This document shows, piece after piece, positions 24,701 through 31,584 of a DNA stretch of 64,000 bases. The position numbers were made by a program, and so were the translations under genes. Origin of the DNA: Patellaria atrata CBS 101060 (Eukaryota); contig MU006107.1 of NCBI GenBank assembly GCA_010093705.1, forward strand, positions 108,031 through 172,030, read 5' to 3'. Under the pieces are notes generated by a model. It did no database searches. It was not told where the DNA came from and worked only from the letters and a program-made list of their open reading frames with translations. The stretch's first letter is position 1; each line of letters begins with the position of its first letter.

Positions 24701-27295
24701 AGTCATTCCACTACGCCCTCAGAATCCAAGTTTGTGAAACGGGGATATAAGTCCAAGAGAGACCAAGACAGCTTTTGCAGATCGTTGTTACGAAAATCCG
24801 AAGAGAATTCCCGAGACTGTGGACAGCCGACAGAACTTCGTTAAATGGTCTATTTCGGCAACTGTTGAAGTTTCCTCTTCTCTCTTGTGGGTCGTAGTTA
24901 TCGGGTCTTTGTAATCGTATCTCTATTGTACCTCTCTATGTTCTTCGCAGCACCAACTGTCTAGAAGGATTAGCAATTAGCAAAGGTTGATGTACCCAGG
25001 ATTTAGCTTAGGAACTGAACAATAATGCTATCTTACTTTTCCTCGTTGCGCACGCGCACTTGTGAATCATCATTTTTTAGTACTTAGAATATCTACTACG
25101 GGGAAAGAAAAGAGATTGCTGGTTGTAACAATAATGGTGATCAGTGCTTTGAGGTGATGGGTCCTTACGCTCTGGCCCGCAGTCCAATCAGTTCGACTCC
25201 CATCAGTGCGAAGCCTCAAGGCAATCCTGGACCAACCGTCTTTGCCCCATGCTTCTAAAGTATACTTCCATGTTGGCCAATTGTTGTATACTTTGAAGCC
25301 AGTTGACCGATTGTAACTTTGTAGTTTAGCCTGAGCAAGCAAATCAATATAGAGAAACCATATTGACGAATCTCCCGTTTTCCCATCCGATATCACGGCG
25401 CCTAAGCTGTGGTCCTGGGATCTGAAGTCGCCATTTCTGCTAAACAGTGCTATCGCTTCCCTGGCAGATAAGTGTGAGATACTAGATACGGTAGAACAAG
25501 TTTCGTCTATGGATCTCCCAGACTCCCGCCGTTGCTAGCGGATCGTCGTCTTGCTTTTTTTACATCGTGACTCGCAGCAGGGGACTAGTTGAAATACGCA
25601 ATCAGCAAGATCATTATTGCCGAATTTCAGTGGTATCGGTCTGCCAGCTGTGTAGACAAACGGCGGCCGTGCCAACCTTTTGCTTGTCCCGACCATGTTG
25701 AGCAGATACACGCCGTACTAACAGGGGAAGACGTGTCGGACATCTAACAAACTGTCCGAGTTCTCTCTAGGGCCCCTTCGGAGAAGTTGACCCACAGTTA
25801 GCCCTCTCCGCATCCTTCGTTCCAGCTTAATAAGGGAAAGGTTGAGGTCGAGGGTGAAAAGAAAAAGCCTCGCTATCAAGTCTCGCTAGCCATGCTCTCC
25901 GGCGACTACAAAGGGCTGGGGGGTTAGGATTCACCCGTGATGTTTTTCCTCAGATCCCAGCCTGTGGTCCTGTGCGCACTTTTATTAAAAGTGTGCAATC
26001 CAAACACTCGGTCCGGGCATCAAGCGTGGAAAACGTAAGGTAGGGCGTCTTCTGAAGCCTGTTCCTCGCAAGCTGATATATCGTTATTCCAAAGCCATAC
26101 TGGGTTAATGTGTTCGAACCGGCAGTGGCTTATGGGGGTAGCAGGTTCAGTGGGGTTAGAGGACAGTACAGTAGTCTGATCGTCTTATATTTCTCAGTTC
26201 GTCAGAGCAACAACGGGAGAGGTAAGAGGGCCGGGAGTGGTAGAGAGCCGTCAGCTTCAAACCTTTGTGTCTCTTCCGTAGAACTACACAGGAAAGCAAA
26301 TCCAGCAGAGACAGGCATGCAAAAGCTTCCCGTTCGTGGGGTTGACCATGTCCTGATTGACCAAGCGAGCGCTCTGGGGCTAGGTTCTGCTGCCCTCAGG
26401 AAGGCTAGGATGCCATCCCATCAATGAACTTTTTTTTCCCTTGCTCCACACCAGGCCCATTTGAATTAGATTGAGCATCGGGCGGCTTGTTGGCTTGGTT
26501 GGATAACGCTTTGACTTGATCTCCAATTCTCCACCGAGCTTGCCTGCACTCCTCCCGAGCGAGAAAGCTCTACTACTGTAGTAATTATTTGTGAGTTACA
26601 GCAGCAGCAGCAGGAGCAGCAGCAGTACGGTGCGGTCCTTTTTTGGTTCCTCCAGACTGAGAAAATCCCTGAATCCTTGAATGGAAGTTTGATTTGTTGT
26701 AGGCGGGTGTACAGTCAGCACAGAGCCAGAGCGAATAGACAAAGACAATACTGTTCTAGCCTTCTAGCCTTTTCTTGCCTCGCTCTGTTCCTGTTGCTGC
26801 AGACAATCGTTCTCTGCAGAAAACGATCTCCGCCAAAAGAAAAAGAGGAAAAGAGAGAGAAAGGAAACGAGAAGAGAGAGACCAGTGGTTCTTGTTGAAT
26901 TTCTTCAAGTTGCTTTCGCGGTGTCTCCCCAGGACGACTGCTGATCGATCCATTATTGTTTCGCCGTTCCGTGACCAACCAACCATCCAACATCCCGTCT
27001 TTGGTGTTATTGTCGTTGTTCAACATCCCGCACATCATCGACGCTCTCGACCTCAAGGAACGTTTCAATTAACTCTCCAAAAGGTATTTTCTCTTTTCTT
27101 CTCTCTTCTTGCCGGGCCCTCTTGCAAAAAGTTGTTACTACTTTCCCGCCTTCGCCTATCTTTGGGCTGGTTTGTTCAATAGCGCCAGCCCGTCACATCC
27201 CAGCCTCCGCTTCTAAACCGCCGTCCATCCCCACTGCTTTCTACCAACCACTCTCTTTTTTTACACCTTTTGTTTTCTTACTGAACGTTGACTCT

Positions 27296-27387
27296 GTATG
27301 TTCCGCAGACGCCTCCTCCTCAATTATCCTTACCCTTACCATATGACGATCTTGTTGACCTTGTTCCACTGACCTCCTGCGCTACAG
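27296..27387 (+). other. Probable 5'-UTR intron of stuA
   Basis: GTATGT donor at 27296, CTGAC branch site and CTACAG acceptor at 27387. An alternative donor AAG|GTATTT lies at 27084. Confidence 0.55.
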
Positions 27388-27623
27388 TTGTTTATCGACC
27401 TTTCGGAAGATACTCCAACGAGCCATCCTCCTAGATACAACAAAACTTCGAGCCGAAAGGACAAGGCATTGAGCTTTACCCTCAAGTCACCGACTCATCT
27501 CCTCTGTCAAACATTGCGGTCTCTCATCCCTTCCGCCCATCCATCAACAAATCGATTGGACTTGTCAAAGAGCGAAGAAACATTTCCTTGCGAGCATTGA
27601 GACGAAGATTTTAAGAGTAGTTT

Positions 27624-27653
27624 ATGACGACCCGAGACGACTTTACGACGTGA
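27624..27653 (+). promoter_or_regulatory. uORF (MTTRDDFTT*) in the stuA leader
   Basis: The only ATG between 27388 and 28523. Confidence 0.5.
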
Positions 27654-28523
27654 TTTCTTGTGCTTCAGCATTGTAGCGTTCCTGTTTTCTCTGCTCGAAT
27701 TCCCTGAGGCACTGCGCCGCATTCTTTGGACCTCCCTCTGGACTGGACGGATTCCTCGGCGCTGTAGCACTCCCATTCGTACAACACTAGGACCTTCGCC
27801 AAGTCACAGGTTCCGCTCCATAGGTCACGAAGAGTACATCCGATAATCGCGCTTCAAACGAGTAGTCCGAATACCGTGGTCGCTTGTTTGCGCCTGGCAA
27901 AAGTCAGCCGCTACTTTTGGCTTCAAACATTATTACACCTGCATTCCTGAGCAAACTTTGACTACTCAAAGTATTTTTTCGGTTAGACTGTTCTTCGGTC
28001 GCCATCATCAAAGTGTCATCGCTTCTGGATTCACCGGTTACGTGCGTTAATCCTACCGCAAAGAAGAGCGTATCTCTGCCCTTTCGGATTCAGTAATTGG
28101 TGATTTGGACTTGGAAGATCTTCTCACTTGCAAAGGTGAATTGATCTTGAGTCGAAGTCGAGGAAGGCGGATCACTCACCCTTCCGTGACTCGTGAAAAC
28201 CGGAAAGCTGGAGCTGCCACCGCTCAATAACGAATTTCCCCCCCGAGGCCCCAACGATCCATCTTATACTTCGAGTTACGGACCACGTTCTTCTGCGCAC
28301 GGTGAGAGGTTACCAAATCTCACTCATATCCGAGCGCAACCAAGCACGTCTTCGAACTCATCTTCGCCTCGGGGTGGTTCATTCAGCGCTTCATCTGTCG
28401 CAAATTCCACGGCAAGCTCTAACACCTCCTATTCTTCATCCGTAAACGGTGTTCAGGCAGGGTATAAAACGCCCTCTCCGGAACAGACTCCGCAATCACT
28501 TGGTAGAAACGGCCAAGGTTTGA

Positions 28524-28610
28524 ATGTGCAATCGCAACAAGAATCTCCATACGGTACTCAGCATAGTGTTCAAGGTTACGGCTACAGCGCAGATTCGTAC
28601 GGCAGCATGA
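28524..28610 (+). promoter_or_regulatory. Out-of-frame uORF (28 aa) whose stop overlaps the stuA ATG (ATGA)
   Basis: ATG at 28524 reads [31 protein letters not shown] 28608-28610 overlaps ATG 28607-28609. Confidence 0.5.
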
Positions 28611-30721
28611 ACCACATGCAGCCCTATCAAGATGTGCATCAGAACCACATTTCTGCAGCCCCAACGCATGCAGCCTCATCTGGGCCCCCAACAGGCATGA
28701 CTCATTATCCGCCGTATCAACAACCATCTGTACTTCAATCTGCTCCACCGAACTATTCATCTGCGCCGAGTACTTATAGTCAGTATGCTTATGGTGGCGG
28801 TATGCCGCCTGTATCTGCAGCTCATGCTGTATCATCATCTATGTCGAATGCCCTTGTCCCCGGAGCTTTGCCGTTACCTGGTGAGTTGATCCAGATCCTT
28901 GCAATTCTCTTTAACTAACGCCTGCAGCAATGACCGCTGGAGCACCTGGAGCTGGTTCCCTTTCAGGATCCCAGAATTACCCACATACGTTCGATACCAC
29001 TGGCCAAGTCGCTCCGCCAGGGATGAAACCTAGGGTCACAGCTACATTATGGGAAGACGAAGGCAGTCTATGTTTCCAAGTTGAAGCAAAAGGGGTTTGC
29101 GTTGCTCGTAGAGAAGGTCAGAATTATGTATGTCATTTTATGAATTTTTACTAACCCCAACAGACAATCATATGATCAACGGTACGAAGCTGCTCAATGT
29201 TGCAGGGATGACCAGAGGAAGACGTGACGGTATCTTAAAGAGCGAGAAAACGAGACATGTAGTAAAAATTGGACCGATGCACCTCAAAGGCGTCTGGTAG
29301 GTCTCAAAAAGCAGAAGTTTTGCTTTTCAGCTAACCTTTGTAGGATTCCCTTTGATCGCGCACTTGATTTCGCCAATAAGGAGAAAATTACGGAACAACT
29401 ATATCCCTTGTTCGTCCATGATATAGGTGCACTTCTTTACCATCCTTCGAACAGCCAGACACGTGCTGGTATTGGAGGTATGGCGGCAGTTGCGGATCGT
29501 CGTCGACAAGATCAACGATATATTGGGACCACCCAGCCGCCCCAACCCCCATCCTTACACCATCACCATTCGATGAGCAATCCTGTGGGCACCCATATGA
29601 ACCAGCAACAGCCTCATTCGATAGCTCCCCATCCATCTGCTGGACGTCCCGGTTTAGATCGAGCCCACACTTTCCCAACTCCGCCAACGAGTGCTTCTAG
29701 TATCATTGGAATGGGCAACCAGGGCAGTTCTTATGAGTGGAACGGCGCCGCAGTCTCAAATTTGCAAAGTAACCAGCCATTGTCCATTGATACTGGATTG
29801 AGCAATGCTCGATCAGTTCCTACTACTCCGGCCACGACTCCACCTGGTGCAATGCAAAACATGCAGTATCAGACAAGTCAAGCTTATGATAGTCAGCGTC
29901 AAATGTATACTGCGCCGCCTACACAACAACAACCGAGCCAATACGGCTCCCAGACTAATAATATGGTACGCTACGGTCAACCTTTACAACCTAGTCCCTA
30001 TCAAAAGAACGAAATGGCACCTCCAGCAAGAACCGCGGAAGGCGACCAGCAATCTGAAGTAAAGCCCCATGATCCGCTAATGAACCAACAGCCAGAACAG
30101 CCAGGTCACGCTCAAGATGAGAATGAAGCTGATCATGAGCACGAGCCTGACTACACGCACTCTGCTGCACCATACACTGCGAATCGGTCATATACATACC
30201 CAAATGCGACAGCCACCTCGCTTCATGCCGAGCATCCCCATCTTTCTCCAGAAATGACGGGCTCACCGCATCAGAATGGCTCGGGCCGAGCTACTCCTCG
30301 AACGACGGTGACAGCAGGTGGTCAATGGTCTACAGGTTATAGCACTCCTCAGCGTGGTCAACAACCGCCATCCAGCAATCTCTATAGCGTCATGAGCGAT
30401 AACCGAGGCGCTACCACAAATGGAAATGCGGCACCGGATAGTTATTCGGCACCACCTGTTCAAAGCGCATACCCAAGCCAAGCATACCCTACGCCTAACG
30501 GATTACCACCCTCGAACAAGAGAGTTCGCGAGCTTGACGACGATGAAGACCCATATGGACGCAGTGGTGGTCGAGGACCGGCTGGTGAAGATATCGAAGG
30601 TCTAAAGCGCCGAAAGACTATCCGCGAGGGTAGCGTAGGAGGCGCTGTGGGTGTTAACTCCTTCAATAACGACCAATCTCTGCAAAGGGCGAAGTCGACA
30701 ATCTCGCAGCGACGCAGATAG
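28607..30721 (+). CDS. stuA: APSES-domain developmental transcription factor StuA/Asm-1 (657 aa from the first ATG; possible non-AUG extension from ~28193/28208)
   Basis: Exons 28607-28880, 28928-29116, 29164-29296, 29344-30721. APSES domain [80 protein letters not shown]; also [20 protein letters not shown] and [22 protein letters not shown]. Confidence 0.97.
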
Positions 30722-31584
30722 CCAAGATCTATTTCTTCTGGTGACTTTGATGGGTGTGAAATCCTGATTCGGATATTGCAAACATAGACGGTTGGGTGCA
30801 AGATTTGCGGTTTCAGACATTTTACTTACAGGCGCTATCGTCCGATCCCTAAATCAGGACACGAATTCGATTTGGCTCCTTCTAATGACATTTAACACGA
30901 CTACCTCTCTTCGGACAAGAAATTCCTTTTCCATATGTCAACAACTCTACATCACCCTTACGATTGTGTCTCTATATCACTAAAATCTTCCCCTCACTAC
31001 AGATTTCCTTACGGCTTTCAATCTCCTTTGTTCGGGCACTGACGACCGATTACGACTTTCTTCTTGCCTTGTTTTGATTACTTCATGACCACGCATTCTA
31101 AGTGGGTGGACGAATATCCCAAACCGGGTGACGACTTGTATTCTGCCCCGGACGGTATTACCGACCTCACGCTGACACGAGAAAAACGGACGACAACACA
31201 TAAAACTATCCATACACCTACCTCCTAGGCTCACATCAAGGACAACAATGCTCACATACCGATCCGGGTCCCCCCCCCCTTTTTTTTTTTTTAATTTCTA
31301 TTATTACAACTTTCGATTCACACCGATTCTGAGAGCAGCGTAGAACCTGAAAACGGCCGACATACACAACTACACAACACACAGCAGCTGAACATTCTTA
31401 TCTCGAGAGACGAATACATGTGATGGCTTAACCTTCCCCAAACTTACCGGGCGGAAAATGAGAGACGGGCTTCATGTGGATATGAATGTGATGATGCGTG
31501 GTTAACTTTTCTTCTAGATTGGTAACTTCTTTGTTCGCTGGGAATTACCTGTTTGTGAATTTGGTGGGATGATTCTTCTTATTT

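Follow-up and report, generated by a model that had tools for sequence, protein, structure and literature searches.

The closest described counterpart of the arrangement reported here is found in cpc-1. In Neurospora crassa and other Pezizomycotina, this gene has a long leader, upstream open reading frames (uORFs), and a conserved N-terminal extension initiated at near-cognate codons (Ivanov et al. 2017, mBio, PMC5487733). According to that study, several near-cognate codons are used, and they vary among lineages. Its discussion cites a second fungal case, the bZIP protein IDI-4 of Podospora anserina, for which a start was proposed at a CUG whose conservation extends to N. crassa. It also covers C/EBP-beta and similar mammalian factors, in which leaky scanning of a single mRNA yields isoforms with different N termini. 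Neither stuA, asm-1, nor APSES is mentioned in the cpc-1 study or in a study on fungal start-codon context (PMC7049704). Outside subscription journals, our literature searches found no paper describing a non-AUG start for StuA or another APSES protein.

StuA, a textbook developmental regulator, has been studied for decades in Aspergillus and Penicillium. In many moulds, this protein or its orthologue acts as a master regulator that governs sporulation, sexual development, secondary metabolism, and virulence. Wu and Miller, writing in Mol Cell Biol in 1997, reportedly found that a micro-ORF in the long leader of Aspergillus nidulans stuA controls its translation. In that work, the AUG is said to have been taken as the only stuA start, with no CUG-started long form. 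The locus that we describe belongs to the same gene family and likewise combines a presumed long leader with a short candidate uORF (19 to 25 codons in the relatives analyzed here). It lies in a 64-kb stretch of DNA (the window) from the Dothideomycete Patellaria atrata CBS 101060; all coordinates below refer to the + strand of this window, while labels of the P0001 type denote public protein models and labels of the L001 type denote loci on metagenome contigs. We propose that StuA is, quite likely, produced as a CUG-initiated form of 790 residues, and that a 657-residue form initiated at the AUG probably coexists with it. A CUG-started StuA is a newly proposed case of an already known phenomenon, as seen in cpc-1.

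Measured against the cpc-1 study (PMC5487733), the resemblance is close. Both genes encode transcription factors with a long leader and a uORF, and both have an in-frame extension that lacks ATG, exceeds 100 codons, is conserved across Pezizomycotina, and begins, in the case of StuA by proposal, at a conserved near-cognate codon in good context. In contrast to cpc-1, which encodes a bZIP protein and uses several near-cognate codons that vary by lineage, StuA belongs to the APSES family and has a single invariant CUG as its proposed start. IDI-4 is likewise a fungal transcription factor with a conserved CUG proposed as its start, although the two proteins are unrelated. The likeness to C/EBP-beta, as described in the cpc-1 study (PMC5487733), lies in three features: good context around a start that is non-AUG or weak, a short ORF that is out of frame and separates the two starts, and isoforms that differ at their N termini through leaky scanning of one mRNA. 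However, C/EBP-beta is an animal bZIP factor whose isoform function has been shown, whereas for StuA we infer it.

The annotated stuA coding region (28607 to 30721) contains three 47-nt introns. Its exons (28607-28880, 28928-29116, 29164-29296, and 29344-30721), when joined, translate exactly into the 657 residues of P0007, the public model for the cell pattern formation-associated protein stuA of P. atrata CBS 101060 (100% identity). Mapped through this exon model, the KilA-N/APSES DNA-binding domain (Pfam PF04383; E = 7e-10; score of 39.2 bits, cut-off 23.8) covers P0007 residues 147 to 226, corresponding to positions 29092 to 29425, and crosses two introns. Downstream of the gene, a C-run is followed by a T-run (31262 to 31306).

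Upstream of the annotated AUG (28607 to 28609), the StuA frame continues to an in-frame TGA at 28187 to 28189. From stop to stop, the frame extends from 28190 to 28918, and up to the ATG it reads LVKTGKLELPPLNNEF...SYGS. There are 139 codons between the stop and the annotated ATG and 133 between the CTG at 28208 and that ATG, with the TGA closing the frame 7 codons 5' of the CTG. No in-frame ATG occurs between the TGA at 28187 and the ATG at 28607. Such an open, ATG-less frame is rarely expected by chance: among 20,000 mononucleotide shuffles of positions 28190 to 28606, the frame was stop-free in 60 and both stop-free and devoid of in-frame ATGs in only 8. The original prediction, which was made from the sequence and described a StuA frame that stays open without an in-frame ATG upstream of 28607, is thus borne out, and its coordinates (TGA at 28187, GTG at 28193, AAG-CTG-G at 28205-28211, and first in-frame ATG at 28607) proved exact on re-reading. 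DNA contigs from two sequencing runs span the stretch without joints, which has no bearing on its expression.

To characterize the conservation of this frame, we searched public proteins with its 230 N-terminal residues and matched 17 StuA proteins. A clear counterpart of the extension was present in 15 of them; the other two, P0007 and P0017, are short models whose first residue is the MN.. methionine. Over the N-terminal 230 residues, the StuA of the window shared 45 to 58% identity with 13 of the 16 other matches. We then used aligned extension sequences to query metagenome contigs and obtained 46 loci. In every one, the frame was open and lacked an in-frame ATG from the upstream stop (or the contig end) to the MNQ methionine. 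Three loci stop short of this methionine and one (L018) begins inside the extension, leaving 42 complete loci. Together with the window, these provide 43 complete extensions, 29 of them distinct and 363 to 402 nt long. All length changes among the 29 are in frame, and neither stops nor frameshifts, which had been named as findings that would speak against a longer protein, were found in the orthologous stretch of the 46 loci or the window.

Substitution patterns point in the same direction. Across the 29 distinct sequences, synonymous differences (mean pS = 0.63; Nei-Gojobori) far outnumbered nonsynonymous ones (mean pN = 0.225) in proportion to their sites, and dN/dS had a median of 0.17 and a maximum of 0.39 once saturated pairs were set aside (374 of 406 pairs kept). 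The low ratio, combined with synonymous sites near saturation, indicates that the extension evolves as a protein under purifying selection. On these comparisons, we conclude that positions 28208 to 28606 are coding. In the window, the 133 codons read LELPPLNNEF...DSYGS; across the aligned sequences, the conserved pieces of the extension are short motifs (LELPSIS.VH.RGPVD.WY, with LELPS/P-I/L at the very N terminus, ERLP.LPQIQ, SSSPRGGS, NTSY, and KTPSPEQTP). A Pfam search of the extension returned no family, and AlphaFold2, run with 25 sequences, gave a mean pLDDT of 51.8 and no secondary structure, so that the extension is predicted to be a disordered, Ser/Pro-rich region. Its motifs probably add sites for interaction or phosphorylation upstream of the APSES domain.

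Despite this protein-like signature, the stretch could in principle be an untranslated leader that is conserved as an RNA or DNA element. Some features would suit such an element: the first ~15 codons after the CTG (28211 to 28255) show less synonymous variation than the rest (for instance, 25 of 28 have TCG at one codon, and as many have GTC at another), and 12 nt upstream of the CTG are conserved as nucleotides. However, a dN/dS of 0.17 with near-saturated synonymous sites holds across all 133 codons, the frame is open in 29 distinct sequences that range from 363 to 402 nt, and the motif at the start of the extension recurs within other ORFs (described below). RNAalifold (25 sequences, positions -15 to +74) was also used to look for a hairpin conserved in the RNA 3' of the CUG. 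The consensus had an energy of -1.34 kcal/mol and 7 pairs, with 0 compensatory changes, and we rejected the hairpin as unsupported; no conserved RNA structure was found. We therefore regard an untranslated element as extremely improbable and favor the reading that the stretch is translated as the N terminus of StuA.

The proposed start is the CUG at 28208 to 28210. Its codon, the first leucine of LELP, reads CTG in the window and in each of the 45 loci, all of them Dothideomycete-like, that extend far enough to include it. To gauge how unusual this is, we took the 28 alignment columns where a residue with 4- or 6-fold degeneracy is present in 90% or more of the 29 distinct sequences. Only at the first leucine was one codon used throughout; each of the remaining 27 columns showed two to five codons, although the 29 sequences are related to one another, so that the invariant CTG does not represent 29 independent events. 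The second leucine of LELP, for example, is encoded by CTG, CTC, CTA, or TTG, with CTG in 19 of 29.

The sequence around this codon is constrained as well. The original prediction had singled out AAG-CTG-G as lying in an optimal context, and this is exactly the invariant codon: CTG 28208 is flanked by A at -3 and G at +4, both of which are conserved. In the window, the conserved initiation context is AAA ACC GGA AAG (28196 to 28207). Among the 29 distinct sequences, the consensus is AAT ACC GTA AAG CTG G, with conservation of nucleotides from -12 to -1 that disappears farther upstream. At the codon before AAG, the residue varies (V, E, G, or A) while the third base is constant, which argues that the constraint on these 12 nt acts on nucleotides rather than on residues. 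Twelve conserved nucleotides are also more than a usual start context needs. At the protein level, conservation begins at (N-T-x-K)-L-E-L-P, upstream of which the public models have nothing in common. An in-frame stop lies a short distance upstream in other loci, too: 8 codons from the CTG in L017 and L032, 10 in L042 to L044, and 12 in L003/L021, L013/L014, and L025. In the Venturia nashicola model P0015, which starts MELPSIS, the position of the first leucine is occupied by Met, as judged at the protein level. Together, the invariance and the context make initiation at CUG 28208 in this fungus a likely event.

Other non-AUG codons, such as GTG 28193, CTG 28214, or several weak sites together, could do the same job, leaving CTG 28208 as nothing but a conserved leucine. 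GTG 28193 and CTG 28214 are both in frame, and the cpc-1 study reports the use of several near-cognate codons (PMC5487733). Yet the GTG has C at -3, a poor context, and no counterpart in other loci, and we rejected it as the main start. The CUG/GUG pair that had been put forward for a conservation check divides: the CUG is conserved in 45 of 45 loci and the window, while the GTG is not conserved. The second leucine is CTG in only 19 of 29 distinct sequences, as opposed to 29 of 29 for the first, which is alone in showing no synonymous change. Furthermore, L017 and L032 have no near-cognate codon of any kind between the stop and the CTG. It is unlikely, then, that another codon takes the place of CUG 28208, although GTG 28193 and CTG 28214 could add minor starts to it.

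A different explanation requires no unusual initiation at all. The extension might be translated from the ordinary AUG of an upstream exon that is spliced in after 28190, in which case the present gene model would simply be mis-annotated. Many models of relatives are built in this manner, including those from Pyrenophora (P0011, MPM joined to LELP) and Penicillium (P0120, M joined to LELP), and the AG of the AAG before the CTG, which such ATG-exon models take as their acceptor, is a possible splice site. However, the upstream part is different in every model, and in loci L028 to L030, whose extension matches P0011, the sequence reads continuously as HINTVKLELP.

Evidence on this point also came from contigs that resemble spliced transcripts. 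Ten loci (L002, L005, L006, L008, L017, L019, L020, L022, L023, and L024) are intronless through the APSES domain. Three of them (L005, L006, and L008) are 99 to 100% identical to the genomic contigs L007 and L010, and they lack two leader introns (~309 and ~209 nt) along with the coding introns of L007/L010; the absence of these introns shows the three to be spliced RNA copies. In these copies, the CTG lies 225 nt into the exon that follows the last leader intron, and an in-frame stop lies 44 codons upstream of the CTG in that same exon. With the stop and the CTG in one exon, no ATG exon can be joined into the frame in these transcripts. More generally, the region 5' of the CTG is retained in the spliced contigs of relatives and contains in-frame stops but no in-frame AUG, so that the upstream ATG exon, whose detection had been named as grounds for abandoning the idea of a non-AUG start, is absent from them.

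For the window itself, we combined every ATG between 26000 and 28190 with each GT inside its short ORF and each frame-keeping AG between 28150 and 28330. None of the 59 frame-compatible ATG/GT..AG combinations had a canonical-like donor, and all would require introns of ~560 to 2100 nt. An upstream ATG exon thus seems very improbable. The central proposal of the original prediction, a StuA that is ~133 residues longer through a non-AUG start, gains support from the invariant CUG, the purifying selection on the extension, and the AUG-less spliced mRNAs of relatives. One further difference was seen among the spliced copies. Of L005 and L006, one retains a 57-nt in-frame coding intron (L007:6256-6312) that is spliced out in the other, giving ORFs of 817 and 798 residues, respectively, which is a case of intron retention or alternative splicing in the StuA of a relative.

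Initiation at a CUG by scanning ribosomes would be favored by a leader with few AUGs. The presumed stuA leader, with a putative extent of 26682 to 28207, contains ATGs only at 27298, 27343, and 27624. On the + strand of the window, no ATG-free stretch is longer than the one from 27624 to 28524 (900 nt), which includes the CTG, and the third longest lies between 26681 and 27298 (617 nt); the mean spacing of ATGs in the window is 58 nt. Spliced leaders of relatives, which are 690 to 1030 nt long, have zero to two ATGs, with none at all in L002 (975 nt), L019, and L020. In genomic sequence, the 1 kb upstream of the CTG holds zero to two ATGs in 9 of the 10 loci checked and three in the window. 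Depletion continues inside the extension. Counting all frames, a single ATG is present in 20 of the 29 distinct sequences and two ATGs in 1, while the other 8 lack any, compared with 3.0 to 4.7 in shuffled sequences. Every one of these ATGs is in the +1 frame. The depletion of ATGs in both the leaders and the extension fits scanning and leaky scanning, as would be expected if ribosomes had to arrive at the CUG by scanning and if those bypassing it had to remain able to find the AUG. This indirect pattern is the reason why we propose two isoforms. A CAG-repeat tract (26592 to 26630) precedes the presumed leader.

The first ATG of the leader opens a candidate uORF of 24 codons (MFRRR...; 27298 to 27372). 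The leaders of relatives hold a similar uORF (at L005:408, L006:516, L008:556, L016:216, L024:284, and L017:266), which is a single one of 19 to 25 codons that starts with MF or ML and in several cases ends in ..SS..AFVN. By analogy, this uORF may be the counterpart of the micro-ORF of A. nidulans stuA.

A second short ORF lies between the two proposed starts. Counting all frames, the extension of the window contains a single ATG. Located at 28524, it has T at -3 and opens a +1-frame ORF of 28 codons (28524 to 28610), the TGA of which overlaps the annotated ATG (ATGA). This arrangement is found in 20 of the 29 distinct sequences, with 25 to 28 codons and an end that is always at +4. The annotated AUG, where P0007 begins, is the likely start of the short isoform; its Met is invariant, and its ATG is followed by A at +4 in all 29 distinct sequences and preceded by A at -3 in all but one of them.

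We hypothesize that these elements act in sequence. Scanning ribosomes would cross a long leader that is kept almost free of AUGs, perhaps with one short uORF. A fraction of them would initiate at CUG 28208, in its strong context, and produce the 790-residue StuA. The remaining ribosomes would scan ~400 nt that contain no in-frame AUG and one out-of-frame AUG in poor context, and those that arrive at AUG 28607 would make the 657-residue form. The out-of-frame ATG at 28524 would divert some of the ribosomes that have passed the CUG, leaving the yield of the short form uncertain. The +1 ORF could lower this yield; alternatively, termination of its translation could be coupled to re-initiation at the AUG.

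The extension also occurs beyond the Dothideomycetes. A profile search with the extension found weaker relatives in addition to those above. One of them, P0092, was closest to a Penicillium StuA (78% identity to a named model). Among the 56 proteins of the search that revealed this match, the L.LPSIS motif was present in 40, with two more beginning inside the extension. These proteins carried the names of Penicillium, Aspergillus, Paracoccidioides, Polytolypa, Onygenales sp., and Sarcosagium. Conservation extends from (T-E-K)-LELPSISQVHTRGP.D.PWYNHH onward, while all preceding parts differ. In the 36 models in which both ends could be located, no Met occurs inside the extension. Another 14 models are short and start with M(AS)MNQ.QPYMDVH or a close variant. 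At the level of protein sequence, the extension is thus present in Eurotiomycetes, too, and the idea that it looks like protein now draws on conservation in both classes. Some of the relatives we take to be StuA/ASM-1 proteins of Sordariomycetes and Leotiomycetes, from their appearance. An ESM Atlas look-up of P0066 and P0085 returned only low-scoring, low-complexity look-alikes from animals.

Up to the K-LELP point, public models all differ from one another, but beyond it they agree, which is the pattern expected if gene callers invent ATG exons. Many public StuA gene models therefore seem to have wrong N termini. Several models of 870 to 1357 residues (P0002, P0003, P0045, P0147, and others) carry long unrelated N-terminal parts, and P0147 is fused to a PF00459 domain. 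These parts look like artefacts of callers that seek an ATG upstream of an ATG-less extension.

If CUG initiation is correct, the annotated stuA start in this genome is wrong or incomplete, and dozens of public models (680 to 1357 residues, all with differing beginnings) have invented N termini. StuA would be a clean example of a start that gene callers cannot find. Experiments in which StuA is expressed or tagged from the AUG may then cover only the short isoform. A second layer of translational control, composed of the uORF, the CUG, and leaky scanning, would act on a developmental switch in parallel to cpc-1, and the conserved Ser/Pro-rich motifs would be candidates for regulatory phosphorylation or partner binding. 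A broader scenario, which we offer with some reserve, is that the CUG-started long proteoform is made throughout the Pezizomycotina, Aspergillus and Penicillium included, either as the main product or in a regulated fashion. The balance between CUG and AUG would then serve as a developmental switch that is set by the uORF, start-codon stringency factors, and the overlapping +1 ORF, and StuA and a GATA factor would have a portable docking module in common, namely a 45-residue motif at the start of the extension. Should this wider scenario hold, constructs and models that start at the AUG omit a functional part of the protein.

That motif, the first ~45 residues of the extension (LELPSIS..H.R.PVD.WY...ERLP), was also found inside two other proteins, at residues ~179 to 237 of P0079 and ~340 to 391 of P0080. 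Its occurrence within these ORFs argues that it works as a peptide. One of the two proteins has a C-terminal GATA zinc finger (Pfam E = 3.9e-11); the other has 584 residues, matches no Pfam family, and belongs to a cluster of 15 members. The motif in P0080 opens with Met.
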